Shown here one piece after another: positions 1 through 51,739 of a stretch of DNA of 51,907 bases. The stretch is from IMG/VR virus record IMGVR_UViG_3300045988_151376. One strand, 5' to 3'. The number at the start of each line of letters is the position of its first letter. Within the stretch, counting starts at the first letter, position 1. Made by a program: the position numbers and the translations under genes. Origin of the DNA: a virus. The notes under the pieces are model-generated. The model ran no database searches. It was not told the DNA's origin and was given only the letters and a program-made list of their open reading frames with translations.

Positions 1-99
1 CGGTTTCAAGACTCCTTCATTATCGGTGTGAAGGTGCTCGGCGTCAAGCTCATAGCTCGCTCGTGGATGGTAATTCTTATGACCACCACGAAAAAAAAG
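1..99. repeat. Terminal direct repeat, identical to 51809..51907 (circular closure or assembly overlap)
   Basis: Hand comparison: bases 1..99 (cggtttcaagactcc...ccacgaaaaaaaag) match the last 99 bases of the window exactly. Confidence 0.95.
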
Positions 100-246
100 G
101 CTCGAAAGAGCGTTTCTTCCCACTTGGGAAGATGGAAGCTCATCTTCTGTACCGAATATCGTCATTGGCGAACTGGTAAGTTGATGCGTGCTTCCGACTA
201 TGGTTACAAGGCTTGGCCGTTCAAGGTTTGGGTTCCTGTGACTTAA
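28..246 (+). CDS. Hypothetical 72-aa W/K/R-rich ORF of doubtful coding status
   Basis: Only long ORF in this region. GTG start, no recognisable domain. Followed by the hairpin at 251..286. Joining the circle does not extend it (in-frame TGA at 51803..51805). Confidence 0.2.
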   Translation: MKVLGVKLIARSWMVILMTTTKKKARKSVSSHLGRWKLIFCTEYRHWRTGKLMRASDYGYKAWPFKVWVPVT

Positions 247-250
247 TGTG

Positions 251-286
251 AAAAACGCCCTGAGGATACGTCCTCGGGGCGTTTTC
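251..286. terminator. Bidirectional hairpin between convergent ORFs
   Basis: aaaaacgccctgagga-tacg-tcctcggggcgttttc: long imperfect stem flanked by an A-run and a T-run. Confidence 0.55.
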
Positions 287-541
287 TTACGCAACATTTT
301 CATCCTCTGTCTGAGCAAGGAGGACTGTCCCGCCTTTTATTCGATCCTTCCAGGCTGTCACCTCATCGACCTTGAATCGGGACAGACGGCCGAACTTGAT
401 GGGCTTCGGAAAGTCGGGCTCGTATTTCACCAATTTCCACACTGAGCTTTCGCCGATTTGCAGAGAGGCCGCGACGCCCTTAGCGTCGATCATGAACACC
501 CCGATGGGGGCGGCGTCTGCCGATTCTTCTCTCTTATGCAT
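287..541 (-). CDS. AlpA-family HTH protein, likely excisionase or prophage regulator
   Basis: The sequence IDAKGVAASLQIGESSVWKLVKYEPDFPKPIKFGRLSRFKVDEVTAWKD fits the AlpA/Xis pattern (HTH, then FP.PikiG...rW...ev..W). An internal Met at 493 is an alternative start. Confidence 0.65.
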   Translation of the reverse strand: MHKREESADAAPIGVFMIDAKGVAASLQIGESSVWKLVKYEPDFPKPIKFGRLSRFKVDEVTAWKDRIKGGTVLLAQTEDENVA

Positions 542-661
542 GATCTCAACTCCTTAGCTGTTCGTTTTGCGCCATGCCCACGGCTCCTCGTCAAAGTGCC
601 ATGCGATGGCGTCAAGGTCTTCTTTTTGGTTATTTGTGAACTCGATCATCGTTATTCCGAT

Positions 662-686
662 AAAAAGCCCGGCATCAAGTCGGGCG
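662..686 (-). terminator. Intrinsic terminator after the Rha gene at 730..1476
   Basis: gcccg-N9-cgggc stem. The plus-strand A-run gives a U-run on the minus-strand transcript. Confidence 0.5.
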
Positions 687-729
687 CATCAATGAAAGTT
701 AGTGCCTACTCTCATTCGTGTTGCGCGAT

Positions 730-1476
730 TCATTCAAGAGAAGACTGAAGAACCTGAACAACCGAATCGCGCCATTGAATTTGGAACCCTGAGTGGTTGT
801 TGCGCTCGTAAGGTCGGTTCTCGCCGTGAGCGGAGCCTGCTTCTGTCAGTTGCCACTGCTTGCCAACTTTTTTCTGGAATCCGAGCTTTTCTAGGAGCTT
901 GTTAACCTTGGCTGCGGCGGTTGTTGGGATGAGGCGTTTGCCGATCTCGGTCGGGTTGAGTAAGGCTGTCTCCGTTACTGGCACTGATGGAATGAGAGCG
1001 CGAAATGGGTCCGTTGGCATACCAATGTCCTTTTGGACCACCGAAAGCGCGTGCGCTGCCGCTCTTTCCTGCGGAACGTTGAACGTCTTGGCGAGCGTGT
1101 TCGCGATGAAAAAGGCAGCCTGAGCGCGCTCTATTGAGTAGGCGAGAGACTGCTGCGTTTTCTCATGCTGTGAACGAAGCTCGGTTTCCATTGCGTTAAA
1201 GGCGTTGATGTACTTGAGCTTCCATTCCATCGCTTTGCCTCCAGTAAAGCCCATAACGAGCAGACTGAAGCCGTCGCGGTTCATCAAAAACTCGGGGAAC
1301 GTTTTTCCACGGGAAGAGTAGGAACTTTCGATGAAAAATTTGGCGGCGGAATTTTCCGCCGTGAGAATTTCTCGGATGGCATAAAGCACATCTTTGTGTT
1401 CTTTCCCAAAGTTGTCAGCGATCTGCCGACTGCTCACAACTACTTGGTCGTTTACGACTTCAACAATTCCATTCAT
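730..1476 (-). CDS. Rha-family phage regulatory protein or antirepressor (paralogue 1)
   Basis: N-terminus VVSSRQIADNFGKEHKDVLYAIREI...FLMNRDGFSLLVMGFTGGKAMEWKLKYINAFNAME matches the Rha-domain pattern. Confidence 0.85.
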   Translation of the reverse strand: MNGIVEVVNDQVVVSSRQIADNFGKEHKDVLYAIREILTAENSAAKFFIESSYSSRGKTFPEFLMNRDGFSLLVMGFTGGKAMEWKLKYINAFNAMETELRSQHEKTQQSLAYSIERAQAAFFIANTLAKTFNVPQERAAAHALSVVQKDIGMPTDPFRALIPSVPVTETALLNPTEIGKRLIPTTAAAKVNKLLEKLGFQKKVGKQWQLTEAGSAHGENRPYERNNHSGFQIQWRDSVVQVLQSSLE

Positions 1477-1493
1477 GGTTTGAGTTCCATAGG

Positions 1494-1530
1494 TAAAAGA
1501 AAAGCCCCGGCGCTTTTCGGCGTCGAGGCT
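1494..1530 (-). terminator. Intrinsic terminator. Member of a two-copy repeat with 10612..10647
   Basis: aaaagccccggcgcttttcggcgtcgaggct: 10-bp imperfect stem with an A-run on the plus strand. Near-identical sequence occurs downstream of the paralogue at 10671. Confidence 0.55.
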
Positions 1531-1552: not shown

Positions 1553-2449
1553 TTACGCGGGCTGATGAGCCAGCCAGTGACGGTAGCAGGGCAGGTCTTC
1601 CATCCTGTAGCCGTGCTTGCTCAGGTCGTTCTCAATGAAGTAGAGATGCATGCACGTGAAGAACTCATAGAACTGCGCGGCAAGCGGCGATTTCATCTGA
1701 TTAAGCGTGTTGTAGAACGCCTGAATCTGCGGGCGGAAGAGGTACCGCAGGCAGTAGATTCCGGCGAGAAGGTTCTTTGCCTCTGCGTCCGTGAGGTAGA
1801 AGGCAGGAATCCTTTCCGGGATTCGCTCATCGCGGTAGGTCGTTGCCTCGATGCGCTTGCGTTCGGACTCTTCTTTCTGAAGCCACTGTTCGCGGCTCAT
1901 GATCGGAGCCTTCTGGATGAAGTCGAGAGCCGCTTCGAAGTCGCGCTTCTGCAGGCAGGTGTACCGCGGGATGCGGAAATGGTCCTTGAGGGCGGAGTAG
2001 ATCACGCGGAAGTTCTTCCCGATGCCGGCGGCGCGACGTCCGACTGCGCGCTGAATCTCGCGCTGTTGGGCCTCGTCGATGTAGTCGGGGCCGCCCTCGC
2101 CTGAGAGCGCCTTTTCCATCCGGTCGAACTCATCGATATAAGCCCACTTGAACTTGTCAGCTTTCTCGCCGGTAAAGCCCATGGCGAGGAACGTGAAGCC
2201 TGCTTTCGTGAGGGCATACGCCTTGTACTTCACGATGCCCTTTCCGAGGTTGGAAGGGCGCTCAAGCTCTACGGGGATGAAGTTCCCGCGACGATCTTCC
2301 GGCGTGCGCTGGATAATGTCTTCGACGTCGCGAAGGACGTGACGATGATTCTTTTCAAAGACGGCTGAGATGTTCGTCGTAAGGACGGTAGCAAGACCGT
2401 TGCAGACAGTGATAGCGGGCGCAGTGGTGCGCGTTTTGACAGCGTTCAT
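1553..2449 (-). CDS. Rha-domain antirepressor with shared ORF6C/KilA-C-like C-terminal domain (paralogue 2)
   Basis: Start moved to the ATG at 2449, which has the SD aaggaga 6 nt upstream. Rha motif FEKNHRHVLRDVEDII...LTKAGFTFLAMGFTGEKADKFKWAYIDEFDRME. The C-terminal half is shared with 4577..5398 and 10671..11555. Confidence 0.85.
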   Translation of the reverse strand: MNAVKTRTTAPAITVCNGLATVLTTNISAVFEKNHRHVLRDVEDIIQRTPEDRRGNFIPVELERPSNLGKGIVKYKAYALTKAGFTFLAMGFTGEKADKFKWAYIDEFDRMEKALSGEGGPDYIDEAQQREIQRAVGRRAAGIGKNFRVIYSALKDHFRIPRYTCLQKRDFEAALDFIQKAPIMSREQWLQKEESERKRIEATTYRDERIPERIPAFYLTDAEAKNLLAGIYCLRYLFRPQIQAFYNTLNQMKSPLAAQFYEFFTCMHLYFIENDLSKHGYRMEDLPCYRHWLAHQPA

Positions 2450-2634
2450 GCTTGTCTCCTTGAGAGGTTTAAGAACCTCGCTCCCACTTTCGACGGTGGT
2501 GGGCGAGGCATCGCGGGGTCGAAAACCGATCTCAAGGTATCGGCCACCCGAAGGTGCCCGCGAGCCTCTCCCATAAAGGAGACTTTCACGCAAGTCTGTG
2601 ATTTTCTCTAGAAGCCCAAAATTGGGCACCTAAG

Positions 2635-2790: not shown

Positions 2791-3615
2791 ATGCCTGAAG
2801 TCGTTGCCTCAAATGCTGATATTGAAGTCTTGGATAACTGCAGTCACAAGAATGGGCATCGTTACTGGCTAGCGAAGGAGTTCATGCTACGTTTGGGATA
2901 TAGCTCTTGGGACCAGTTTAGGAGGGTCATTAACAGGGCTATTGCTTCATGTGCAAAGTTAGAACTGGACGTCTCTGAGGCATTTGAACAGATCCGTAGC
3001 GACGATGGCCGACTGGTTGACTACAAGCTGAACCGGTTCGCTTGCTTTCTGATTGCGACTTACGCTAACGACAAAAAGCCTGAAGTGCAACGCATCAAGA
3101 TAGCCCTGTCTGCCTTTGCTGAGACAGTTATCCAAGCCGCAATCGACTCGAACAGCGTCCTCCGTATAGAGACGCGAGAAGATCTAAAGTCTGCGGAAAA
3201 GCTCTTGAGCTCAGCCGCAAAGGAAGCCGGAGTTAACTCAGGCGAGTTTGGGCTATTTAAAGACGCAGGATTCCGAGGCATGTACAACATGTCTCTCGCG
3301 GATCTCCGGGCCCATAAGGGCGTGATTGGTAACGGACGTAAGTCTCCAGTTTTATACGACTTCATGGGCATAACGGAACTGGCGGGCAACTTGTTCCGAG
3401 ATACGCAAACCGCGGAGCGCATTCGCAGTAAAAATGTTCGTGGGCTTAGAGAAGCCGCAGATTCTGCACGAACGGTTGGTAAAGAAGTGCGCGACATGAT
3501 GATCCGAAATAGCGGTGTCAAGCCGGAAGACTTACCCGTTGAGGAAGACGTCAAGAAAGTGAAGACTCGTCTCAAGAAGGCCAGTCGAACCATGATCAAA
3601 CATGACAAAAATTGA
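2791..3615 (+). CDS. dinD: DNA-damage-inducible protein D (DinD)-like protein
   Basis: Collinear similarity, from memory, to E. coli DinD (HMGSTELAANLFRATQTEEKL versus FMGITELAGNLFRDTQTAERI here). RBS ggagaaacag before the ATG. Opposite strand to its neighbours. Confidence 0.75.
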   Translation: MPEVVASNADIEVLDNCSHKNGHRYWLAKEFMLRLGYSSWDQFRRVINRAIASCAKLELDVSEAFEQIRSDDGRLVDYKLNRFACFLIATYANDKKPEVQRIKIALSAFAETVIQAAIDSNSVLRIETREDLKSAEKLLSSAAKEAGVNSGEFGLFKDAGFRGMYNMSLADLRAHKGVIGNGRKSPVLYDFMGITELAGNLFRDTQTAERIRSKNVRGLREAADSARTVGKEVRDMMIRNSGVKPEDLPVEEDVKKVKTRLKKASRTMIKHDKN

Positions 3616-4576: not shown

Positions 4577-5398
4577 TTACGCGGTTAAGCGCTTGGGCTG
4601 TTGCGAAGCCCAGTGTTGGTAGCACGAGAGATCTTTCACCGAGTATCCCTGCTTGGCTAGAGCATCTTCCATAAAGCCAAGTCCCAGATCATTAACGGCT
4701 TCCCAAAAATGAGCTGCGAGAGGGGATTTCACGCGGCGCAAGAGCGCTAAAAAGAGATTCAGATCGTCTCGAAAGAGATATCGCCAGTAATAGATAAAGA
4801 CAACGATTTTCTCGGCCATAGCCTCGTCGATCACGATTGACCCTTCGGGAATTGCCGGAGCCGAAAGCTGCGGCTTAAGTGTGCATGTCTCGATGAGTGC
4901 GAGTGCTGCTTTCATCTGATCGTGTCTTAGGTCTTTGTAGCTCGCGATCTTGAAGTAATCGTAAAGAGCGTTGTAGACCGTCTGGTAGTGAACCGATGAG
5001 TTCTTTGCGCGTGACTTGATAGCTTTGCGGATCTCGTACTGCTCTGTAGTCGTGATCAGCGCGGACTGGTCTGTTTCGTAGCGTCCCGTGCGGCGAATCG
5101 CCGGCAGAACTTCCGACGTTACCCAGCGCTTGAAGCGTTTTGCGCTCTCCAGCTTGGAGCCGAAGATCAGTGCGTAGAGGCCGGACTCGGTGACGCAGTT
5201 GACGGTTTGCGTGCGGCCCATGCTGTCGGTGATCTCGGCCTTGACGATGTCTTCAGGGTCGACAAGATCGGCAATCGCCTTACGCGGATTGCTGTGTGAG
5301 AGCGCCTTGCAGATGTCGGTTGCGACAAAAAGAGGCGCTTCAGGCGTGCCAAGGGTGCGGACGGAAGAATTCTCAAAAGAGAAAGTGAGTGCAGACAT
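4577..5398 (-). CDS. BRO-N-domain antirepressor with the same shared C-terminal domain (paralogue 3)
   Basis: N-terminus FENSSVRTLGTPEAPLFVATDICKALSHSNPRKAI...SGLYALIFGSKLESAKRFKRWVTSEVLPAIRRTG fits BRO-N. The C-terminus aligns with paralogues 2 and 4 (VKSPLAAHFWEAV...GYSVKDLSCYQHW). SD aaggaga. Confidence 0.85.
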   Translation of the reverse strand: MSALTFSFENSSVRTLGTPEAPLFVATDICKALSHSNPRKAIADLVDPEDIVKAEITDSMGRTQTVNCVTESGLYALIFGSKLESAKRFKRWVTSEVLPAIRRTGRYETDQSALITTTEQYEIRKAIKSRAKNSSVHYQTVYNALYDYFKIASYKDLRHDQMKAALALIETCTLKPQLSAPAIPEGSIVIDEAMAEKIVVFIYYWRYLFRDDLNLFLALLRRVKSPLAAHFWEAVNDLGLGFMEDALAKQGYSVKDLSCYQHWASQQPKRLTA

Positions 5399-5695
5399 TT
5401 AGGTCTCCTTAGATGCGTTGAATGCCGCTCGCACGGTTCCAATCGTGGCGGGCGGGCTTGTAGGTTTGGAACGCCGCTCTAAGGAAACGGCCCCTCGAAG
5501 AGGGTCCTACAAGCCCACCCATAAAGGAGGCTTGTCGATGACGTAACTGCCGGTTACGCCATCCTGCACATCAAATAAAAAGCCGCTTCCAACGGTCGGC
5601 GGCTTTATTGTGCGCCTTAGAGTCGGGGTTCCAATCCCGTCCCCGTCGCTTTCACGGGGCACGAACATTGTGCCCGATCTTAGGCGCTGTGTCAA
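5399..5695 (-). promoter_or_regulatory. Structured 5' leader of antirepressor paralogue 3 (copy B), same architecture as 2450..2757
   Basis: e1 CUCUAAGG (plus 5615..5622), terminator (5576..5606), e2 CCUUAGAG (plus 5477..5484), e3 UCUAAGGAG containing the SD (plus 5405..5413). Confidence 0.6.
5667..5695 (-). promoter_or_regulatory. Sigma70-type promoter (TTGACA-17-CACAAT), leader copy B
   Basis: Minus strand: TTGACA (5690..5695), 17-nt spacer, CACAAT (5667..5672). Confidence 0.6.
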
Positions 5696-5740
5696 AATGG
5701 AAAAGGAGCTTGCGACAAACGTCGCGAGGGGAGTCTTGCC

Positions 5741-6307
5741 ATGAATAATCTTTATCGATCTCTTATTTCGTTGGCTACCGTGTTCCCGTTGAGCATCACG
5801 TTCAGCTATTTGTACTCGGATTGGCTGCTGAGCCTGTTGCCTGATGTGGTCTCTCATTTCTTAGAAGCTCACCTGAACGCGCAGCTGGTATTCGTTTTGT
5901 GCGCAGTGGTGTTCAACTATGCTCTTGGGCAAATAATCCTGATCTACCTCGGGTGGGTCGCGACGAAGTTGGATCGACTCCCCGTGAAGCTAACAAGCGT
6001 CAAAGAGCTGGGCACAGATAGCCTGTTGGCCTATCTGCCATATGTTCTTCCTTTGTTCATGATCCAGGGAGATCGCCAAGAGCCGACGGGGTGGTTGCTT
6101 GGCGGGATCTTGTTGTTGATCCTCTCGTGGGCGTCAATGACGATTGCTTTTTCCCCATTGCTGCGAATTTGTGGAATGCGCTTTTTTGAGGCCACGCGAC
6201 CAGACGGCACTACTGTGACGGTGTTGATCAAAAATCCCAGCCTTAGGCCGTTGCGATTGACGGAAGCTTCAAGTATTTCGGATAACTGCTTGTATGGATT
6301 GAAATGA
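5741..6307 (+). CDS. Four-TM membrane protein, first gene of an AT-rich two-gene island (KwaA-like architecture)
   Basis: Four hydrophobic segments (SLISLATVFPLSITF, LVFVLCAVVFNYALGQIILIYLGWV, LLAYLPYVLPLFMI, WLLGGILLLILSWASMTIAF) and a soluble tail. The stop overlaps the next start (ATGATG). Opposite strand to its neighbours. Confidence 0.7.
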   Translation: MNNLYRSLISLATVFPLSITFSYLYSDWLLSLLPDVVSHFLEAHLNAQLVFVLCAVVFNYALGQIILIYLGWVATKLDRLPVKLTSVKELGTDSLLAYLPYVLPLFMIQGDRQEPTGWLLGGILLLILSWASMTIAFSPLLRICGMRFFEATRPDGTTVTVLIKNPSLRPLRLTEASSISDNCLYGLK

Positions 6308-7197
6308 TGGATAACGCGGAATCTCTGTTTGTCTCTGGAGCCTCTTTTCGTGGGGTGTCGACCTGCGTTCGGCGTCTCAAACTCATGTCTGATGCGGCCA
6401 ATGATATAAGCGCCGTTGTCAGAAGCCAATACGAAGAGTTTTCAGAGCTAAGCGAAGTTGAATTCGACGGTCGTTACAAGGTGGAATCAGACGAATGCTT
6501 TTCCATCAGCGACTATGTTGATGCCGATGGAACATTCGCGTCGTTTCAGGAAATCATTAATGGTAACTGTAGCGATGTACTGAAAAACACGGATTCCTTA
6601 AGCGAATGCCGTGCTCTATTGTTCCGAGCGCCACAATTACCTAATCTGGTGCTAATTCAGCGCTTCACCAATTCTTATCTCGCTAAGCGCGATCGTTGGT
6701 TTGGTTTCGGTTGCAGCGACTCAGTCAGAAAAATCGAAGAGTCCGCATTCACTATTGCATCGTCGCTTTCAGGGGTCTATGACCTCGAGTCAAAAAGATT
6801 GCGTTTTAAAAGTGTTCAGAACATCCGCGCGGTCCTTCCGGGGTTTTCTGATCAGTATGCGCCCGGAGCGGACAAGACGACCATTACAACCTTCTTCCGA
6901 CAGCCAATCTTCGATCAAGATAGTGCAGACAAAGTCCAAGCGCTTGATTCGATGAAGGTGGCTCGCTTGGTATGGCTACTAAAAGAGCAGGACGCCCCTC
7001 TCGAAAGAAGGCTGGCTACTTTTCAGAAATACGATGAAATTCTCAACCTGAACTCAGTCAGAAATGGAAAAATCATTGTGAGCACAGAAGTGCGCAAAAT
7101 GGAGGTGATTCTTCGCATTTTGTTGGGGGATGTGTTTGAAGACAATGGACGAATCTATTTAAGCAACTCGAAGAGGCCAATCGAACGATTTGCGTGA
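6304..7197 (+). CDS. 297-aa soluble partner of the membrane protein (KwaB/DUF4868-sized; family unverified)
   Basis: Translationally coupled to 5741..6307. AT-richer than the backbone. No motif I can name with certainty. Confidence 0.7.
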   Translation: MMDNAESLFVSGASFRGVSTCVRRLKLMSDAANDISAVVRSQYEEFSELSEVEFDGRYKVESDECFSISDYVDADGTFASFQEIINGNCSDVLKNTDSLSECRALLFRAPQLPNLVLIQRFTNSYLAKRDRWFGFGCSDSVRKIEESAFTIASSLSGVYDLESKRLRFKSVQNIRAVLPGFSDQYAPGADKTTITTFFRQPIFDQDSADKVQALDSMKVARLVWLLKEQDAPLERRLATFQKYDEILNLNSVRNGKIIVSTEVRKMEVILRILLGDVFEDNGRIYLSNSKRPIERFA

Positions 7198-7212
7198 TGA
7201 GCTTGTCTTTAC

Positions 7213-7704
7213 TTACGAGATCACCACGGACTGGCGTTCTTCGAGCGCCGCTCCGGGGATGGTCTCGCCGTCCTTGAGCGCCTTCTTCAGCGCTACTTTG
7301 TCCGGATCGATCGTCGTCTTGATGCGCCTGAAGGCTTCGGGAAGGGCCTCAAGGTCGAGCACCTTGACGGCTTGCGTCGTGCCGATGCGAAGAGACACCA
7401 TGACGCCTTTGACCTTTCCGCCCATAGCTTCGAGCGCGGGCATCATGTAGGCCTTCAGGCGCTCGGACTTGTTCTCCAGTGCCTTACGGCGCTTTGCAAG
7501 ACGCTCTTCTTCAGCCTTGATAGCTTCGGCTTCGGCCTTGAGTTCGCGGCAGTAGCAAGCCGTCCCTTCGAGCTTTTCAGCTGCTGCGGTGGTGTACTCC
7601 GCGTAGGCGGCAAGGGCTTCGCCATCGACCTCACCCGTATCGGGATCGGCGTCGAGGCGGTCGAGAAGTTCGCGCAGCGCGCCGGGGATTTCGTAAATTT
7701 TCAT
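7213..7704 (-). CDS. Siphovirus Gp157-like protein
   Basis: Start moved to the ATG at 7704 (MKIYEIPGAL...). Coiled-coil centre and C-terminus IDPDKVALKKALKDGETIPGAALEERQSVVIS fit the Gp157 family. Classic neighbour of Sak4-type ATPases. Confidence 0.7.
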   Translation of the reverse strand: MKIYEIPGALRELLDRLDADPDTGEVDGEALAAYAEYTTAAAEKLEGTACYCRELKAEAEAIKAEEERLAKRRKALENKSERLKAYMMPALEAMGGKVKGVMVSLRIGTTQAVKVLDLEALPEAFRRIKTTIDPDKVALKKALKDGETIPGAALEERQSVVIS

Positions 7705-7717
7705 TTTGAGTGCTCGC

Positions 7718-7745
7718 AAAAAAGCCCCGGTGGTTGACCGGGGCT
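7718..7745 (-). terminator. Intrinsic terminator
   Basis: agccccggt-ggttg-accggggct: perfect 9-bp stem. The plus-strand A-run gives a U-run on the minus transcript. Confidence 0.65.
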
Positions 7746-7754
7746 GAATGGTTG

Positions 7755-8393
7755 TTAGAAGGGCATGTCGTCATCGACTGGCGGATCAGGCGGCATAGAA
7801 GCTGCGCGGGAGGTCTGTGCCTGCGTTCCTCCGTCAAGCTTGCGCACCGCCTTAGGATGCTCCTTCAGGTTCTTAAGAAGCGCGGGGATAGCCGTGGCTT
7901 CAGTCGCGCCCGAATCGATCTCCTTAGCGGTTCGACCGGTGGCCGGATCGAATGCGCGTCGGATCGTCATGTCGTTGGCGATCTTTACCTCCCCTAGATA
8001 GAGGTATTCGCGGGGCTCTGCTTCAAGGACGAGGCCGATTGGCTTTCCTTCGATCGCCTTTCCGCGATAGCCCTTCACGATCTCGCCTTTCATGGTGCGT
8101 ACCTTGCCTTCGACCCATTCGACCGACTCGGTTTTGGAGCAAAAAAGCATGGACTGGAAGATACCCATACCAAAAGCATCTTCGCCGTCGCTTTTGACGA
8201 TGCAAAGCGAGAGCCACGCCGTGGCTCCATCATTCGATTCGAAGTAAAACCGGAGCATCGCGGCTCCGTTCTTCGTTTCGTACTGCTCTGCCTGCAGGAT
8301 CTTTCCTTTGTAAGCCCCAGTTTCAAAGATGCGGGCCGGGGTTTCGCTCCTGATGGCAGATACCTTGTCGGCCTTGATAGTTCCGATGATCAT
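7755..8393 (-). CDS. ssDNA-binding-type protein (DUF669-like position) with a canonical SSB acidic tip
   Basis: The C-terminus ends PPVDDDMPF, compared with E. coli SSB DDDIPF. It lies in the Gp157 / ATPase / ssDNA-binding triad. Confidence 0.65.
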   Translation of the reverse strand: MIIGTIKADKVSAIRSETPARIFETGAYKGKILQAEQYETKNGAAMLRFYFESNDGATAWLSLCIVKSDGEDAFGMGIFQSMLFCSKTESVEWVEGKVRTMKGEIVKGYRGKAIEGKPIGLVLEAEPREYLYLGEVKIANDMTIRRAFDPATGRTAKEIDSGATEATAIPALLKNLKEHPKAVRKLDGGTQAQTSRAASMPPDPPVDDDMPF

Positions 8394-9109
8394 TTAGATT
8401 CCTTTGCCGATTCTTCGGCGGGTGTTGAAATTCCGTAGTACTCGCAGATGGCCTTGTCGACCTCTGCAAGGTCGTTGTCGATCTCGTCTTCTTCGAACAT
8501 CCCAAGAGGAGATTTCACGGTGTCGAAGCCTGAGTTGTGAGTGCGAAAGAGGTACCTGCCCTGATCGACCGCTGTTCGAAGGACGGTTGTGAACATCCCT
8601 TCAATGACGATCTTTTCGTCCAGCATCTGCCCGATCGTTTTGATGCGCGTCACGCCATCCTTGACCACCGTGTGCGCAAGGAGATAGACGCGTTTTGCAT
8701 CGTCGAGCTCTGAAGCGGTCTTGGCGAGATCGAACCCGCAGCCGCCGATCTGATTCCACTTGTCATAGCCTCCGACGTTCCGCAACTCCATCATTCTGAA
8801 GGATAGGAAGTACTGCCAATCGTCGATGACGATGATCTCCTTTGAGGTCTCCTTCATGGACTGAAGGATGAAGGGGACGTTGGACGTGCAGAGGATGTTG
8901 CCGCCACTCAGGCGTGTGAGCTCTTCTCGCTCTCGCTTGTTCTCGACAACTTTTTTAGTTCCGAGCTGAACAAACTTCCAGCCAGTTGACCTGAAAGGAA
9001 GCGGTTTTTTGACCGGTTGGATGATTAGCGTTTTGGTTGGATCGATATTGCGAAGGGAGCAAGTCTTGCCTGACCCACTTTCGCCCAAAACAAGCGTTCC
9101 GTAGCTCAT
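8390..9109 (-). CDS. P-loop ATPase, Sak4/AAA_24-like recombination protein
   Basis: Walker A VLGESGSGKT and Walker B-like IIVIDDWQY. Overlaps the downstream gene by 4 nt. Confidence 0.75.
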   Translation of the reverse strand: MSYGTLVLGESGSGKTCSLRNIDPTKTLIIQPVKKPLPFRSTGWKFVQLGTKKVVENKREREELTRLSGGNILCTSNVPFILQSMKETSKEIIVIDDWQYFLSFRMMELRNVGGYDKWNQIGGCGFDLAKTASELDDAKRVYLLAHTVVKDGVTRIKTIGQMLDEKIVIEGMFTTVLRTAVDQGRYLFRTHNSGFDTVKSPLGMFEEDEIDNDLAEVDKAICEYYGISTPAEESAKESK

Positions 9110-10670: not shown

Positions 10671-11555
10671 TTACGCGGGCTGATGGCTCAGCCAGTGTTT
10701 GTAGCAAGGAAGCTCCTTGACGCTGTATCCGATCTTGTCGAGAGAGGCTTCAAGGTTCAGCCAGTTGAAGTCGTGAACGGCTTCCCACATGGATGCAGCG
10801 TAGGGCGAATCGACGCTTCGGAGGAAGTCCACATAGCGCTCGAGGTTTGCGCGATGCAGGTAGCGCCACGTGTAGACGAGAGACCGTAGTTCCTCCATGA
10901 AGTGCGCCTTGACGGTGTAGACCTTCGGCGGGATCGGCTCGTCGTGATAAGTGGCAGCCTCGATGCGCTTCATCTGAGCCTTTTCATGCTCGATGCATTC
11001 TTCACGCGTCATGATTTTGACTGACTGGATGAAGGAGATTGCGGCCTCGAAGTCTTTTTCGAGAATCCGCTTGTAGCTGGGGACGTTGAAATGATTTTTC
11101 AGCGCCGAGTAAATCGTTTGATAGTTGATCCCGTAGCCTTCGGAGCGGCGGCCTACTGCTCTTTGGATTTCGCGTTGCTGTGCGTCGGTGATATATGCCG
11201 GAGCGGGAGGATTCTTCAGCGCCTGTTCCATCCGCTCGAACTCATCGTAGAAAGCACACTTGAATTCGAGCGCCTTAGCACCGGTGAAGCCCATAGCCAA
11301 TAGACAGAAGCCCTTGCGATCCATCCAGTACGCAGGAACCTTTCGAGTAGCACCCTTGTCGTTCAGACTGACTGTTTCTGAGTATCGCGCAAAATTGCGT
11401 AATACTTGAAGTTCTTGATTTTTTGCAATTAGGTCATCTACCGCGCGAACTACGTCGCTGTGCTTTTTGCCAAAGTATTCTGCAACTTTGAAGCTGGACG
11501 TAACCGCACGGCCTTCAACCACACGGAAGGCATTTTGAACAATGTTCTGAGCCAT
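10671..11555 (-). CDS. Rha-domain antirepressor with shared C-terminal domain (paralogue 4)
   Basis: Start moved to the ATG at 11555 (SD aaggag). Rha motif FKVAEYFGKKHSDVVRAVDDLI...WMDRKGFCLLAMGFTGAKALEFKCAFYDEFERME. C-terminus GYSVKELPCYKHWLSHQPA. Confidence 0.85.
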   Translation of the reverse strand: MAQNIVQNAFRVVEGRAVTSSFKVAEYFGKKHSDVVRAVDDLIAKNQELQVLRNFARYSETVSLNDKGATRKVPAYWMDRKGFCLLAMGFTGAKALEFKCAFYDEFERMEQALKNPPAPAYITDAQQREIQRAVGRRSEGYGINYQTIYSALKNHFNVPSYKRILEKDFEAAISFIQSVKIMTREECIEHEKAQMKRIEAATYHDEPIPPKVYTVKAHFMEELRSLVYTWRYLHRANLERYVDFLRSVDSPYAASMWEAVHDFNWLNLEASLDKIGYSVKELPCYKHWLSHQPA

Positions 11556-11760
11556 TGTGAACTCCTTTACATATTTGATTAATCGCCCCTTTTGAGAGGG
11601 CGGCCAAGCGCTCAAAACCGTGTAAAGGCGGCGGGCATATTTCCCTTTCGGGTTTTTTATTAGCCTCACGCTCAGCCATGAGCTGAGCTATCCGCGCCCA
11701 TAGGGCTACAGATACAAAAAAATCCGCATGACTGACAGGGCGGAATCCGCTTTACAGGTG
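11556..11760 (-). promoter_or_regulatory. 5' leader of paralogue 4 with its own anti-SD/SD pair
   Basis: Minus RNA: e2 CCUUUACA (plus 11621..11628) is complementary to UGUAAAGG at the SD (plus 11564..11571). An upstream UGUAAAG (plus 11750..11756) precedes a weak hairpin with U7. Confidence 0.45.
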
Positions 11761-14014: not shown

Positions 14015-14725
14015 CTATCGTCTTCGGCGATAGGAGCGACGGTGTTCAACCATAACGCCAATGACGGAAAGTCTTTCCGTGCGCGAGTTGTATATCGGAT
14101 AGTCCTCATTAAGTGGGATCAATTCGAAGATTTCATTTCCATACTCGTCATATCCGCGGGGACGATATTTTTTGAATGTTGTTTCCATGTCGTCCGAGAA
14201 CTTACTGACCCTTGTTGCAATTACAAAATCACCAGGCATTGGATGAATAGTGGGATCAACAACGATGATGTCTCCCTCTTGGAAATCTGGTTCCATCGAA
14301 CTCCCAATAACCTTGAGGGCGTAACAATCATCGGGCAGGTCCATGTCAACCCAAATGAAATCCCCGCTTTCGATTGCTGCCTGCCTGGCAGCAATTTGCC
14401 CTGTTGATGTGGGATCTCCTGCCTGTGCATAGGAAAGGATGGGAATCCTTTTCATCCTCCCACGAATAGGCTCAACATTGCTCTGGTTAGCGGGAGGCTG
14501 GTCGTTTGATACAAGAGGCTCTCCTACGCCGTTAACGATCCAGTTTTGATTGAGAGGCAATTTGGAGCAAATAGCGAGAGCCGGAGCGGACTTCATATTT
14601 TTCGTCTTGCCCGACACCCAACTTGCCACAGAGGGCTGCTTGATGCCCGCCAACGCGGCTAGCTCCGATTGCGAGATATTGAAGTGCTGAAGCACCCAAG
14701 AGATTCTTTCTGAAAGCGTTGTCAT
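14015..14725 (-). CDS. CI-type repressor: XRE HTH plus S24 (LexA-like) self-cleaving peptidase domain
   Basis: N-terminal HTH SQSELAALAGIKQPSVASWVSGK. C-terminal ALKVIGSSMEPDFQEGDIIVVDP...TFKKY carries the Ser/Lys dyad context. ATG at 14725 with almost no leader. Confidence 0.9.
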   Translation of the reverse strand: MTTLSERISWVLQHFNISQSELAALAGIKQPSVASWVSGKTKNMKSAPALAICSKLPLNQNWIVNGVGEPLVSNDQPPANQSNVEPIRGRMKRIPILSYAQAGDPTSTGQIAARQAAIESGDFIWVDMDLPDDCYALKVIGSSMEPDFQEGDIIVVDPTIHPMPGDFVIATRVSKFSDDMETTFKKYRPRGYDEYGNEIFELIPLNEDYPIYNSRTERLSVIGVMVEHRRSYRRRR

Positions 14726-14751
14726 GATAGACAAGCCTATCGGTTCGTGTG

Positions 14752-14791
14752 AATGGAATGTCTATTACTTGTGATATAGTTGCTTCTATCG
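14752..14791 (+). promoter_or_regulatory. Rightward early promoter (PR-like, extended -10) with operator
   Basis: TGaTATAGT at 14772..14780. The 17-mer TATAGTTGCTTCTATCG (14775..14791) matches the PL operator at 15 of 17 positions. Further CTATCG/CTATTA/CTATCT half-sites lie in 14737..14800. Confidence 0.5.
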
Positions 14792-14817
14792 CTATCTATA
14801 AAGGTAAAGAGACACCT

Positions 14818-15045
14818 ATGACAAAACAGAGCAATCTGCGTGCAACTGCGATCGCTCGCGATCTCGTTCGCGAGGTCGGTAGTCAAAGGAAGACCGCCGA
14901 GCTTGTGGGTGTGAAACAGCCGTCAGTATTCGCATGGACAAAAAACGGTCTCACAGCGACTCGTGAAAACGATCTTCGATTTCGCTTTCCAGAACTTCGG
15001 GTCTGGAAACGTTATCCGCCGCTTACCTCTGCTGAGGCCAACTGA
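14818..15045 (+). CDS. Cro-like HTH protein
   Basis: Start moved to the ATG at 14818. KTAELVGVKQPSVFAWTKNG is an HTH. Divergent from the CI gene. Confidence 0.7.
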   Translation: MTKQSNLRATAIARDLVREVGSQRKTAELVGVKQPSVFAWTKNGLTATRENDLRFRFPELRVWKRYPPLTSAEAN

Positions 15046-15284
15046 TGTTCATTCGTCCAGAACTCCGCAAGGGCGATATCGATGTTCGCGTGAAGGCTCC
15101 CAAGGATCTTGTCGATAAAGTCGACCTGATCTCTCTTGCGCTTGGCCTGACGCGGCAGGACATTGTGCTTGTCGCTCTGGATGCGTACCTTAATGAAACG
15201 CTGGCAATAGCAAGAGTACTGAATCAAGTCGAGGCATCGCAACGGAATTCAAACGGCGTCGTAACGGCAGGAGATGCGCGATGA
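15045..15284 (+). CDS. Ribbon-helix-helix (Arc/CopG-like) protein; possible CII or Mnt analogue
   Basis: IDVRVKAPKDLVDKVDLISLALGLTRQDIVLVALDAYL fits a beta-strand plus two helices. Coupled start (TGATG). Confidence 0.45.
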   Translation: MFIRPELRKGDIDVRVKAPKDLVDKVDLISLALGLTRQDIVLVALDAYLNETLAIARVLNQVEASQRNSNGVVTAGDAR

Positions 15285-16216
15285 GCTACGCCGCAGAGAG
15301 ATGGGCCCGGGCACAGGCGCTGCGGCTTTCCGGAGAGCCTGAAGCCCTCGCCTTGCTGAAAGAAATTGCTTGTTGGTACTTAGAAAAAACGGGCGCTTGC
15401 GAGAAGACGCAAGGCGAACTCGCGAAACTGATGGGCTACAAAAAAGCAGATACCGTAGGGCGGTACGTGAAGAAGCTCGTTCAGATGGGCTACGTCACCT
15501 TTGAGCGCACACATGGGCCTACTGGGAACATCACCGGGAGCGTTTTCCGCCTTGTTGGATTCGTAGCAAGTGAATGGCCGGAAAAACGACAGGGAATGAA
15601 ATCGCTTTTGCCCGCAGATACCACTCCTTATTGTGGGGGTGCTCCGTATCAAGGGGTACCCCGTATCGCGGGGGACCCCCATGATAAGGAGAAGGGGTAT
15701 CCCGTAACGGGGGGGAGGGTACCCCGTATCGCGGGGGAGGGTACCCCGCAACACGGGATTCATATACAGGGTAATACAGGGAATACAGGTAATAACAGTA
15801 ATTCTATAGGCGCGTCCGCTTCGCAGACGCTTGAAAACACCTTCGAGGATGTTCCTTTCGACGAGTCCTTGTACGAGGAAGCCCGCTCGATGGGGTCAGA
15901 ACCCAACACCGTGAAGGCCGAAGCTCCGAAGCGCAGGACTACCACGCCGCGCAAAAAGCCCGCTACCCGATGCCCGTTTGGGCCTGATGCCTCAATCCCG
16001 CCCGAATACCTCGAAATTGCGCAAAAGGCCGGTATCGGGGACCCTCAGCAGGTCTTCTCCGCATTCGTCAATCACGCAATCGCACACGATCGAAGCCTAG
16101 TGGTCTGGCCTGCAGGTTTCCGAACGTGGTGCTCCAACGAGCTCCGATACCACCCCAACCAAACACCCAAGCCGAAGCCTCTCCACCAACGAACCGCTGC
16201 CGATTACGACTGGTAA
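15281..16216 (+). CDS. Replication initiator (lambda O-like, winged-helix N-terminus) containing the origin iterons
   Basis: wHTH-like TQGELAKLMGYKKADTVGRYVKKLVQMGYV. Iteron array inside the ORF. Followed by a DnaC-like loader gene. Confidence 0.6.
   Translation: MSYAAERWARAQALRLSGEPEALALLKEIACWYLEKTGACEKTQGELAKLMGYKKADTVGRYVKKLVQMGYVTFERTHGPTGNITGSVFRLVGFVASEWPEKRQGMKSLLPADTTPYCGGAPYQGVPRIAGDPHDKEKGYPVTGGRVPRIAGEGTPQHGIHIQGNTGNTGNNSNSIGASASQTLENTFEDVPFDESLYEEARSMGSEPNTVKAEAPKRRTTTPRKKPATRCPFGPDASIPPEYLEIAQKAGIGDPQQVFSAFVNHAIAHDRSLVVWPAGFRTWCSNELRYHPNQTPKPKPLHQRTAADYDW
15637..15757. repeat. Iteron array (about 5 copies; consensus GGGTACCCCGTATCGCGGGGGA); candidate origin of replication
   Basis: Copies at about 15637, 15655, 15694, 15718 and 15739. 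15718..15738 and 15655..15675 are nearly identical. Confidence 0.75.
15765..15812. repeat. AT-richer short tandem repeats (TACAGG[G]NAA units) flanking the iterons
   Basis: tacagggtaatacagggaatacaggtaataacagtaattc. Equivalent position to the AT-rich segment of lambda ori. Confidence 0.5.
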
Positions 16217-49248: not shown

Positions 49249-49451
49249 GTTGTGTCTAACTCTACGGCCCTCCTGCGGCTCTAGGGAAGACAGTCGCCAT
49301 TACGGCGCGTAAAGGCTCGTCTGCCATTCCTAAACCCCGTGTACAGCTCTTGACGGATGTCCACCAAGATGTACACCATAGAAGCGCGATTACCGGTGAA
49401 AGCGATTTCCGCCCGGATTTTTTGTGTACATCAGGAAAGGAGCCTGCTGAG

Positions 49452-50816
49452 ATGCCAAGAGTTGCAGAGAGGATGACAGAAAAGCGCCTGCGGAGCCTGA
49501 CGAAAGGTTGCTCCTGCGGCGTCGTTCCGGGCCTTGAGGTGCGCGTGCGCACTCTGGGCGACGGGAGCACGGCAAAGTACTTTTTGCTTCGTGACCGTGC
49601 GACGGGTAAGGCGTACCAGATCGGACAATATCCGAAGGTCTCGCTCTCTGAAGCATTCAAGACTGCGGCCGAGTGGCGCGAAAAGATTAAGGCGGGGATT
49701 GATCCGGTTGCTGAGAGAAAGGCGCTGCGCATGTCTCTTCAGTCTGAGGAGCCCGCGCCGGCTGTTCTGACCGTCCGGGAGATGGTCTACGGGTGGATTC
49801 GGTTCAATGAGGAGCGGGGGAGATGGAAGAACGCTCGCAAGCCGAAGGAGCGAGTGTGGGATGGGTACTGCAGCAACCACTTCGCGCCGGACTTTCTTTC
49901 GATGCCGGCGAAGGACGTGACTGCTGAGCTTCTATACGACGAGTTGGGGGAGAAGTGGCGCACCATGATCGATACGCCGGAGAGGATTCTGAGCGATATG
50001 CGTAATGCCTACGACTGGGCAATGCGGCAGGAGATGATTCCCGTAATGATGAATCCGGCCCGTGTAGCCGGAGGGAAGCTCGGCGATATGCTGTCCCTCG
50101 CTCGTCCCGAGGGCGGCCATGAGCCCGCGCTGCCGCCTAAGCGCATGCCGGCTTTCTTTGCTGAGCTGATGAAGCTCGTGCCGCGCAGTCAGTCTGCGCG
50201 CTGTCTGGCCTTCGCCATTCTCACGTCGGCCCGCAATTCAACCGCCAGAGAGGCCACGTGGGATGAGATTCAGCAGGACGATGAGGGACAGTGGTTCCAC
50301 GTCATCCCGCGCGAGCGGATGAAAATGAAGTCAGACAAGATTCCTTTTGACCGGAAAACGCCGCTCTGCGCTCCGGCGAAAAGTCTTCTGGACACCGCGC
50401 CGCGCTTTCCGGGCGAAGGCCGCAACTTCATCTTCCCGAATATCAATCAGGGGAACATGTCGCCCTTCTCGCTCGATGCGGTTCGCTCGTTACTGAAGAG
50501 AATGCACGACAGGCAGCGCGCGAAGGATGGCATAGGGTGGGTCGATCCGGAGCAAAAGGCGAAGGACGGTAAGCCGAGGATTGTCACCCTTCACGGTCTA
50601 GCGCGGGCCACGTTCAACACGTGGGCGAAGGACGCGAAGGGCTACGGCCATAAGTCCTTCTCCCGTGACCTGCGGGAAAGCTGTCTCGATCACCGCAATG
50701 AATCGTACCAATGCGCCTATGACCGTGAACAGGCGTTGGGCGACATGAGAGAGGTTTATGACGCTTGGGGAAAATATTGTTGTGCAATGTTGACAATAAC
50801 TCCAAAAGTGATATGA
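49452..50816 (+). CDS. Tyrosine integrase (IntA/P4-like); probable phage integrase
   Basis: ATG at 49452 (RBS aaggag). MTEKRLRSL..GLEVRVRTLGDGSTAKYFLLR...IGQYPKVSLSEAFKTAAEWR. Catalytic context TSARNSTAREATW, LHGLARATF, LDHRNESYQCAYDR. Confidence 0.9.
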   Translation: MPRVAERMTEKRLRSLTKGCSCGVVPGLEVRVRTLGDGSTAKYFLLRDRATGKAYQIGQYPKVSLSEAFKTAAEWREKIKAGIDPVAERKALRMSLQSEEPAPAVLTVREMVYGWIRFNEERGRWKNARKPKERVWDGYCSNHFAPDFLSMPAKDVTAELLYDELGEKWRTMIDTPERILSDMRNAYDWAMRQEMIPVMMNPARVAGGKLGDMLSLARPEGGHEPALPPKRMPAFFAELMKLVPRSQSARCLAFAILTSARNSTAREATWDEIQQDDEGQWFHVIPRERMKMKSDKIPFDRKTPLCAPAKSLLDTAPRFPGEGRNFIFPNINQGNMSPFSLDAVRSLLKRMHDRQRAKDGIGWVDPEQKAKDGKPRIVTLHGLARATFNTWAKDAKGYGHKSFSRDLRESCLDHRNESYQCAYDREQALGDMREVYDAWGKYCCAMLTITPKVI

Positions 50817-50860: not shown

Positions 50861-51217
50861 ATGAAGATTAGTGAGTATGGCAAGCTTGTCCGAAAAGGTC
50901 GGATAGATGCTGGTGTCACCATGCTCGATATGGCTCGAAGCATTGGTGTTGCTCCTTCGTATCTCAGTGCTACGGAAGTTGGTTCGAAGAAAATTTCCGA
51001 CGATTTCCTGAATCGAGTGATCGAATTTTTCGCCTCCAAAGGGATCCACATCAGCGGCATTAGAGAAGCCGCAGACGTGTCAAATAAGGCGGTTTCTTTG
51101 GAGGGACTTTCTACAACTCAGCAATTCCTTGTCGCAGGGTTTGCTCGTGCAAATATGTCAAAAGATCAACTCGATGCCTTTGTAAAGTTATTAGCTGACA
51201 CAAAAAAAGGAGGCTAA
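50861..51217 (+). CDS. XRE-family HTH regulator (ImmR-like)
   Basis: VTMLDMARSIGVAPSYLSATEVG is an HTH. AT-richer DNA. Immediately upstream of an ImmA-like peptidase gene. Confidence 0.8.
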   Translation: MKISEYGKLVRKGRIDAGVTMLDMARSIGVAPSYLSATEVGSKKISDDFLNRVIEFFASKGIHISGIREAADVSNKAVSLEGLSTTQQFLVAGFARANMSKDQLDAFVKLLADTKKGG

Positions 51218-51739
51218 ATGAGTGGACACGGATATAAAGTACCCCCTCGATCCATTAGGAATATTCGGGAAATCGCTGAGGGAGTCCGCAAAATCGTAGG
51301 TGATCCGAGAAAAAATATAGGAATGTTTCTGGAAATCCTACTATTCCAAGGGAAGTTGGATGTGGTCGAGGATAACGATCGCCGGTTAGCACGGGATGTT
51401 GAAGCGGTTTTCATCCCAAATGATCAATGTATTCGCCTTAGAAACCGGGACTATGAGGCGGTGATAACAGGTTCAAACCGAAGATCTTTATTTACGTTCT
51501 GGCATGAGTTCGGTCATATGATCCTGGGGCATGAAAGAACATTCAATCGCGAAGAGTCACAAGAACATAAAGCGTACGAAGACTCTGAGTGGCAAGCCAA
51601 CACTTTTGCTGGGGAAATTCTGATGCCGCTTCCAGTTATTGACGAAGAAAATTTGAAGACGCCAAACGTGATTGCGGAAAGGTTTGGCGTTTCTTACGCA
51701 GCTGCCACGTCTAGGCTAAGACAGCTGAAACGAATATGA
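51218..51739 (+). CDS. ImmA/IrrE-family zinc metallopeptidase
   Basis: HEXXH motif in FWHEFGHMILGHE, plus the downstream E..AN.FAGEILMP motif. Confidence 0.85.
   Translation: MSGHGYKVPPRSIRNIREIAEGVRKIVGDPRKNIGMFLEILLFQGKLDVVEDNDRRLARDVEAVFIPNDQCIRLRNRDYEAVITGSNRRSLFTFWHEFGHMILGHERTFNREESQEHKAYEDSEWQANTFAGEILMPLPVIDEENLKTPNVIAERFGVSYAAATSRLRQLKRI

Follow-up and report, generated by a model that had tools for sequence, protein, structure and literature searches.

Do the two adjoining genes at positions 5741-7197 of the viral sequence IMGVR_UViG_3300045988_151376 form a Kiwa-type defense system, and are they carried by a phage as exchangeable cargo? The analysis covered the whole stretch of 51,907 nucleotides, hereafter called the window. 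A preliminary description, made from the raw letters, had compared the pair with KwaA/KwaB (Kiwa). The first gene, kwaA-like (5741..6307, plus strand), encodes a predicted inner-membrane protein of 188 aa with four transmembrane (TM) helices and a cytoplasmic beta-barrel. The second, kwaB-like (6304..7197, plus strand), encodes a soluble protein of 297 aa; its N-terminal half is mixed alpha/beta, and its C-terminal half is helical and homologous to KwaB/DUF4868. As set out below, the pair is a very divergent copy of known Kiwa and not a new type of system. By analogy with characterized Kiwa, it is probably (at roughly 0.8) a functional, deeply divergent Kiwa-type defense system carried as moron cargo by a temperate gut phage.

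Relationship of the two proteins to KwaA and KwaB

The organization of the pair was read directly from the sequence. The first open reading frame (ORF) ends in TTG AAA TGA, and the ATG of the second, at 6304, lies over that stop codon in an ATGA overlap (6304..6307, plus strand). This start/stop overlap implies translational coupling of kwaA and kwaB. A Shine-Dalgarno-like GAGGGGAG is found at 5726..5733 on the plus strand, 7 nt 5' of the kwaA ATG. The coordinates and lengths given in the preliminary description for two coupled plus-strand genes were thus exact, and its remark on base composition held as well: the GC content of the cassette is 48.0%, compared with a window mean of 57.4% (standard deviation, 4.3%) for segments of equal size, and it is lower than in every other 1457-bp segment of the window sampled at 50-bp steps. 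Full-length homologs with 39-73% identity were found for both proteins. Because these homologs always occur as the same adjacent pair, the two ORFs are not chance ORFs. Overlapping minus-strand ORFs at 5507..5857 and 6031..6429 were without support and were taken as spurious.

The 297-aa protein was matched by the PADLOC KwaB model PDLC00234 with E=8.4e-25 over residues 20-293 (profile positions 14-288 of 289). Further KwaB models, PDLC00222 (E=1.4e-24) and PDLC00225 (E=1.8e-21), matched as well, and the matching models carry the description "DUF4868 domain". An AlphaFold model of the protein, computed with 15 homologs in the alignment, had a mean predicted local distance difference test score (pLDDT) of 87.6. 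In this model, beta/alpha alternation extends to about residue 168, and the remainder is helical with a terminal hairpin. The predicted structure has the two-domain fold of KwaB, a Rossmann-like N-terminal half followed by a helical DUF4868 C-terminal half. Foldseek comparison of the model with the PDB yielded six matches at E<=1e-3, all of which were KwaB (9nyu_A, 9mrx_D, and 9mtn_A/K/B/C). Their E values were around 1e-6 (1.1e-6 for 9nyu_A) at a probability of 1.00 and about 310 aligned columns; the next match had E=0.55. Two proteins of uncultured siphoviruses in BFVD have the same fold.

The 188-aa protein was matched by the PADLOC KwaA model PDLC00221 with E=1.7e-13 over residues 1-166 (profile positions 2-149 of 173, i.e. 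85% of the profile). Three more KwaA models matched with E values from 3.5e-9 to 5.4e-7. The AlphaFold2 model (pLDDT 79.9) contains helices at residues 3-32, 47-76, 94-107, and 115-132 and strands at 79-81, 86-90, 147-152, 158-163, 175-180, and 183-186. The loop that follows helix 2 contains two of the strands and the C-terminal tail the other four, and the predicted architecture is the four-TM, six-strand architecture of KwaA. Hydropathy peaks coincide with the model helices, and lysine and arginine are enriched in the loop 77-93 and in the C-terminal tail; hydropathy and charge distribution fit an N-in, C-in topology. When the model was compared with the PDB by Foldseek, the top seven matches were KwaA chains (E 1.3e-4 to 1.6e-3, probability 1.00). 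The best of them, 9mrg_A, had E=1.3e-4 and a template modeling score (TM-score) of 0.52, and values up to 0.53 occurred among the seven; the next match had a probability of 0.33. A profile of the KwaA-like subfamily searched against PDB sequences placed KwaA on top, yet only with E=0.09. In a weak alignment (E=0.0019), the KwaA proteins of the window and of Escherichia coli share a VK[IL]TS strand motif, at residues 82-86 in both, and a lysine at the end of TM2, K76 here and K75 in E. coli.

Family membership of the second protein was approached through sequence profiles as well. Pfam family PF16162 (DUF4868) currently bears the name "Kiwa protein KwaB-like". When the alignment of the KwaB-like subfamily was used in an exhaustive profile search, 406 representative proteins were retrieved at E<=1e-3. 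They fell into two score tiers, a tight group of about 15 full-length clusters with at least 229 bits and a shell with at most 92 bits. The shell proteins are about 290 aa long and were matched end to end by the subfamily profile. PF16162 was positive in 26 of the 29 shell proteins sampled, and the subfamily profile had retrieved these at E values from 1e-21 to 1e-10. Direct comparison of subfamily and shell with hhalign covered 289 columns at a probability of 100% and E=8e-40. When the shell profile was searched against the PDB, KwaB was the sole match (E=0.019). Because of this profile bridge to the PF16162-positive shell, the 297-aa protein is regarded as a genuine, deep-branching KwaB homolog.

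The clade to which it belongs comprises about 15 clusters at 50% identity, from gut metagenomes, a Sutterella metagenome-assembled genome (MAG), and several phage lineages. It has invariant motifs of its own (PGF..Y.PGAD, RLVWL, and LGDV), and its proteins are left unnamed by the annotation pipelines of all sources. It was not found in GenBank phages, either by megablast of the region or by tblastn of KwaB, or in PLSDB plasmids by tblastn.

Several parts of the preliminary description can be judged from these results. The four TM helices ascribed to the first protein were recovered in the AlphaFold model and in the hydropathy profile, and the solubility of the second agrees with the lack of any hydrophobic segment (maximum Kyte-Doolittle value over 19 residues, KD19, 1.16). 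The proposed Kiwa identity was supported by the PADLOC hidden Markov models, of KwaA as well as of KwaB, by Foldseek, by the profile-profile bridge, and by the strict co-inheritance described below; the part of it that failed was a direct hmmscan match to PF16162, which is weighed further below. Taken together, membership of the pair in the Kiwa family is close to certain.

Co-inheritance, cargo slot, and carrier phage

Loci reached via either protein came from a genome MAG and from metagenome and IMG/VR contigs. All intact loci, i.e. those without a contig end inside either gene (L001-L024, L032, L034, and L035), contained both genes next to each other in unchanged order, abutting or overlapping. 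These loci comprised at least seven variants, with identity as low as 44%/40%, and at least three unrelated contexts, two prophage positions and one non-phage site. In the first, the cassette occupies the same slot as in the window, from an Ant/Rha gene to recombination genes, in prophages (L002-L005). In the second, another type of prophage (L010-L012), it lies directly upstream of HNH/terminase, and in the third, it is found outside phages between an autotransporter gene and an AAA-ATPase-like gene, with tra genes nearby (L006-L009). Such strict co-inheritance is compatible with assembly of KwaA and KwaB into one complex. KwaA identity exceeded KwaB identity in the best-covered variant pairs (68/53%, 52/40%, 48/43%, and 48/40%); in the most distant variant, the margin was small (44% for KwaA, 42% for KwaB). 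From these comparisons, the putative membrane sensor KwaA appears to evolve more slowly than KwaB.

The cassette is inserted among minus-strand genes, as had been noted earlier. On its left lies ant, encoding a Bro-N anti-repressor (4577..5398, minus strand). The leader of ant contains a C4 antisense RNA (5444..5526, minus strand), which matched Rfam RF01695 over the full model with 53 bits (gathering threshold 45) and E=1.9e-7. A sigma-70-like promoter, TTGACA-17-CACAAT (5695..5667, minus strand; a consensus match only), reads into the C4 RNA/ant leader. RNA and promoter agree with the earlier statement that the pair adjoins a promoter-bearing ant leader read in the opposite direction. On the right, Sipho_Gp157 (7213..7719, minus strand; PF05565, 126.6 bits; phrog_253, E=2e-37) is convergent with kwaB, and the stop codons of the two genes lie 15 nt apart. 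It is followed by the remainder of the recombination module, SSB (7755..8393, minus strand) and a Sak4-like annealing protein (8390..9109, minus strand).

Comparison with related contigs delimited a swappable cargo segment at 5697..7212 with a GC content of about 48%, as evident when L029, L033, and L036 were compared by blastn and by alignment of the junctions. On the left, homology stops just after TGTCAA (5690-5695), i.e. past the -35 hexamer of the leftward ant/C4 promoter, which abuts the junction; on the right, it returns at 7213, the stop codon of Gp157. Contigs of the same lineage (Sak4 100% identical) carried either an identical cassette or the shared backbone with other content in the slot. 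The alternative cargo of L029 (8896..9696), L033, and L036 was an 801-bp segment (46% GC) containing ORFs of 56 and 70 aa, that of L027 (8896..10564) consisted of genes for a 78-aa TM protein and a 271-aa DUF805 membrane protein, and L026 had another arrangement at the slot. Since phages of the same lineage hold other content between identical breakpoints, the cassette is dispensable, exchangeable hotspot cargo, a behavior expected for a defense moron. More distant relatives, located beside host ispB, have a PDC-S13, DinD-like, or SDH_protease gene at the corresponding position. In L041, a PDC-S13 homolog (14638..15522) occupies the slot held by Kiwa in the window, and in L043 the slot contains an SDH_protease/NfeD-like gene (14516..15196). 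Among the slot alternatives, PADLOC gave no match for the ORFs of the 801-bp segment, the 78-aa TM and DUF805 proteins, or the SDH_protease/NfeD-like gene.

A second plus-strand gene of lower GC content lies among the minus-strand early genes about 2 kb from the cassette (2791..3615). Its product is DinD-like (NCBIfam NF008573, 165.7 bits, below the cutoff of 242) and matched the PADLOC defense candidate PDC-S13 over its full length with E=1.1e-74. The region from 2.7 to 7.2 kb looks like a small defense-cargo island. The variable slot and the nearby PDC-S13 gene bear out the prophage defense-island position that the preliminary description had assigned to the pair.

A few features of the flanks were noted in their own right. 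Within the 44-bp cargo-specific leader, directly 5' of the kwaA Shine-Dalgarno-like sequence, an inverted repeat GCGAC-AAAC-GTCGC (5710..5725, plus strand) was recognized by eye; it may serve as an operator or form a hairpin in RNA. In the ant leader, the tRNA-like fragment GGTTCCAATCC (about 5627-5637) was considered as the remnant of an attachment site and rejected, as ARAGORN finds no tRNA there; the C4 RNA is located elsewhere in this leader, and the fragment lies outside it. Lambda Gam inhibits Kiwa (PMC11785009), and the PHROGs label of the Sipho_Gp157 family is "Mu Gam-like end protection". The idea of a built-in Kiwa inhibitor was nevertheless discarded: by Pfam the neighbor is Sipho_Gp157 and not lambda Gam, and PADLOC gave no match for it.

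The window contains three C4-type RNAs, all on the minus strand, at 5444..5526, 2495..2578, and 11594..11677. Two were found with RF01695 (53 and 54 bits) and one with RF02221, sRNA-Xcc1 (70.6 bits). Each is located at the 5' side of an Ant/Rha-type gene (4577..5398, 1553..2629, and 10671..11669, respectively). These three RNA-ant sets within 12 kb amount to P1/P7 immI-like c4-ant modules in triplicate. No regulatory RNA was detected in the Rfam scan for a fourth Rha-like gene (730..1476). The ORF at 1553..2629 (minus strand) has a GTG start at 2629 and overlaps the C4 RNA at 2495..2578. Its homology to Rha/Ant begins at about residue 44-69, and the true start of the gene probably lies downstream of the RNA.

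The window also encodes an S24/CI-type repressor, a replication initiator, a DnaC-like loader, large terminase, portal, major head, and tape measure proteins, and an integrase. On account of the repressor, the integrase, and the structural genes, the carrier is considered a temperate tailed phage. Integrase (49350..50816), helix-turn-helix (50861..51217), and M78 peptidase (51218..51739) genes form the right end of the window. In integrated copies (L041-L044), these genes run directly into the early region of the left end (1..1500); hence, the window represents the genome in permuted or circular form. Integrated relatives adjoin host ispB in the order proS-proB-obg-rpmA-rplU-ispB followed by int. 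The M78 protein was present in 492 index blocks, and on this basis the lineage is very common. In sister prophages at the same integration site, ERF plus YqaJ (L043, 15856..17135) or RecT plus YqaJ (L044, 11840..13750) replace the Gp157-SSB-Sak4 module (window 7213..9109). Within a species-level genome collection, the sole related cassette was 40% identical and occurred in a Sutterella MAG. This match and the GC content of 57% suggest a Sutterellaceae-like gut bacterium as host.

Proposed function and competing explanations

In the E. coli system (PMC11785009), on which the following scheme is modeled, KwaA is a tetramer. By analogy, four-TM protomers of the window's KwaA with a cytoplasmic beta-barrel would form a tetramer in the inner membrane, and the barrel would be the docking site of KwaB dimers. 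Perturbation of the membrane by a superinfecting phage or a conjugative pilus, at attachment or DNA entry, would activate the complex. KwaB would then bind the incoming DNA, stall replication forks, and block late gene expression, and the cell would not be killed. In Kiwa, non-abortive protection against phages, and often against conjugation, depends on both genes. Expression from the prophage, against the lytic early direction, would shield the lysogen, and hence the prophage, from competitors. Induction of the resident prophage starts inside the cell and would give no entry signal, so that Kiwa should not be triggered by it. The lysogen would most likely be protected against superinfecting phages and possibly against plasmids. 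All of this, from assembly of the complex and its trigger to DNA binding, expression in the lysogen, and the defense phenotype, we infer from homology to the E. coli proteins.

A number of results weigh against this interpretation. The DUF4868 assignment proposed earlier for the second protein found no direct support: PF16162 was detected neither in the 297-aa protein (Pfam-A, E<=1) nor in the 15 members of the subfamily (E<=10), and Pfam-A at E<=1 gave no match for the 188-aa protein either. NCBIfam, including NF041623, had no match to KwaB of the window. In a search of PDB sequences, the profile of the KwaB-like subfamily did not reach KwaB and returned only a chance match to UL130; single-sequence phmmer searches of the PDB with both proteins gave only chance matches to clamp loaders (E around 0.3). 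Identity to the solved KwaB structures is 10-11%, with a global TM-score of 0.41-0.43 and a root mean square deviation of about 14 A. Residues known from E. coli for DNA contact (KwaB N134, R142, R167, D169, K187, and R233) and for the interface (KwaA K75/N77 and Y181/F183/K194; KwaB R21, P100/N101/Q103, and Y157) (PMC11785009) could not be mapped reliably, as alignments to the E. coli fragments were too weak. With hhalign, the subfamily matched the E. coli KwaB fragment at a probability of 0.07, and the route via the outer shell gave a weak match (E=0.0023, probability 12.7). Thirteen columns of the KwaB-like subfamily contain at least 85% lysine or arginine, their equivalence to the E. coli DNA-contact residues being unproven; R57, R103, R120, R131, R175, R221, K265, K290, and R291 are invariant basic residues of the protein. 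On the transcriptional side, no plus-strand promoter for kwaA was found in a consensus scan, in which the number of regional matches equaled the shuffle expectation, no terminator was found after kwaB, and the sequence 5' of the kwaA ATG that belongs to the cargo measures only about 44 bp.

Some of these points have a plausible explanation. In view of the profile bridge, the failure of Pfam to detect the 297-aa protein is, as far as profile comparison can tell, a limit of model sensitivity, the PF16162 model being too narrow. The low global TM-score of the KwaB-like model probably reflects a different relative orientation of its two domains. Because the cargo leader is only about 44 bp long, we speculate that transcription of kwaAB probably starts in the region shared with the divergent ant/C4 promoter.

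The same divergence raises the question whether the pair still does the work of Kiwa. It might descend from Kiwa and have kept the folds but respond to another trigger or produce another output, for example as a classical superinfection exclusion device acting at the membrane against DNA entry, as a device tuned to conjugation, or as a system wired to the C4/ant switch. Such a change of function would be in keeping with the extreme divergence from solved KwaB (10-11% identity), with the blindness of the curated Pfam and NCBIfam models to the protein, with the clear score gap between the tight subfamily (at least 229 bits) and the remaining KwaB-like proteins, none of them above 92 bits, with the clade's own invariant motifs, and with the position of the cargo junction right at the -35 box of the ant/C4 promoter. 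In addition, specificity varies among Kiwa variants, and a variant from Burkholderiales failed to reduce conjugation (PMC11785009). Nevertheless, homology in both proteins is full length, domains have been neither added nor lost, and the two-gene architecture is unaltered. The cassette is also found elsewhere in prophages and at a site outside phages and thus cannot depend on the C4/ant neighborhood. We therefore consider a changed function unlikely. Still smaller is the chance we give to the proposal that the clade, beside the three KwaB clusters of PMC11785009, makes up a fourth branch of Kiwa that works differently, because trigger or effector output have changed or because expression is coupled to C4/ant. 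It might, for instance, be a superinfection exclusion device optimized for the phage and expressed from the divergent promoter region shared with the C4/ant switch. If C4/ant drove expression, the prophage would switch its defense on and off with its own lysis-lysogeny state.

Two further explanations do without defense altogether. Small multi-TM proteins are frequent in phages, and one of the alternative cargoes of the slot also encodes a membrane protein (DUF805), so that the genes might be ordinary membrane or lysis-control genes, holin/antiholin-like or an anchor with its partner. Their position, in the early/immunity region on the opposite strand and far from the late genes, does not fit such a role. 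Pfam and PHROGs scans gave no holin, lysis, or PHROG functional match, the specific profile and fold matches were to KwaA and KwaB only, and the cassette is both dispensable in phages of the same lineage and present outside phages. Of all the readings considered, this one is the least probable. It is also very improbable that the pair is a decaying or silent passenger, an acquired remnant that is neither expressed nor functional. The lack of a recognizable promoter and terminator and the low GC content, which suggests foreign origin, would agree with a remnant. However, the ORFs are intact in all variants, and alignment of homologs with 38-73% identity leaves 37 invariant columns in KwaB and 36 in KwaA. 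Identical copies of the cassette were seen repeatedly in many independent metagenome assemblies, and the start/stop overlap and the Shine-Dalgarno-like sequence are preserved. A working, divergent Kiwa thus remains the preferred interpretation.

Comparison with known Kiwa systems and defense hotspots

The closest known system is E. coli Kiwa (O55:H7 RM12579 and ECOR49; PDB 9mrg, 9mrr, 9mrx, 9mtn, and 9nyu; PMC11785009). Like it, the pair in the window forms one operon of two genes, kwaA first and kwaB second. In E. coli KwaA, four TM helices and two periplasmic loops are combined with a cytoplasmic barrel, whose six strands come from intracellular loop 1 (ICL1) and the C terminus (PMC11785009); the model of the 188-aa protein likewise predicts four helices and six strands from an intracellular loop and the C terminus. 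The 297-aa protein resembles E. coli KwaB in being, according to its model, a soluble two-domain protein of about 300 aa. The two systems differ in sequence, identity being 10-11% for KwaB and 14-18% for KwaA, and in the host, which is inferred to be a gut beta-proteobacterium-like organism here and does not belong to the Enterobacterales or Bacillales. About half of approximately 1,260 dereplicated Kiwa loci are in mobile elements, including about 197 in prophages (PMC11785009), and the present locus is mobile-element-borne like many of these. Since prophage-borne Kiwa is already documented, the pair does not represent a new type of system.

Existing models see the pair to different extents. 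The PADLOC Kiwa models matched nearly over the full length, but scores of 49-86 bits mark a distant relative of the sequences from which the models were built. Taking the PADLOC thresholds as we assume them to be, annotation of this type would very probably label the locus as Kiwa. PF16162 and NF041623, on the other hand, see neither the window protein nor its 14 closest relatives, despite the bridge to the PF16162-positive shell. A whole clade of Kiwa is thus missed by Pfam and NCBIfam annotation, and a reader of the raw sequence was able to call the defense system from architecture alone. Adding sequences of the clade to the KwaA and KwaB models would improve censuses of defense systems in gut microbiomes. 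No new mechanism emerges from the locus; its value is that an annotation gap is closed and a cargo hotspot is well delimited. One phage backbone with one bounded hotspot, filled with Kiwa, PDC-S13, or other cargo, provides a natural comparison set in which the exchange of defense cargo among temperate phages can be studied.

Defense morons of prophages occupy variable hotspots, e.g. the cargo hotspots of P2/P4-like elements. In low GC content, opposite strand, sharp breakpoints between conserved modules, and unrelated cargo in sister phages, the cassette of the window corresponds to such morons. To our knowledge, a hotspot between C4-RNA/ant immunity and Gp157-SSB-Sak4 modules has not been described. 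Unlike the P2/P4-like hotspots, the site lies between these two modules and belongs to an uncultured lineage of gut phages.

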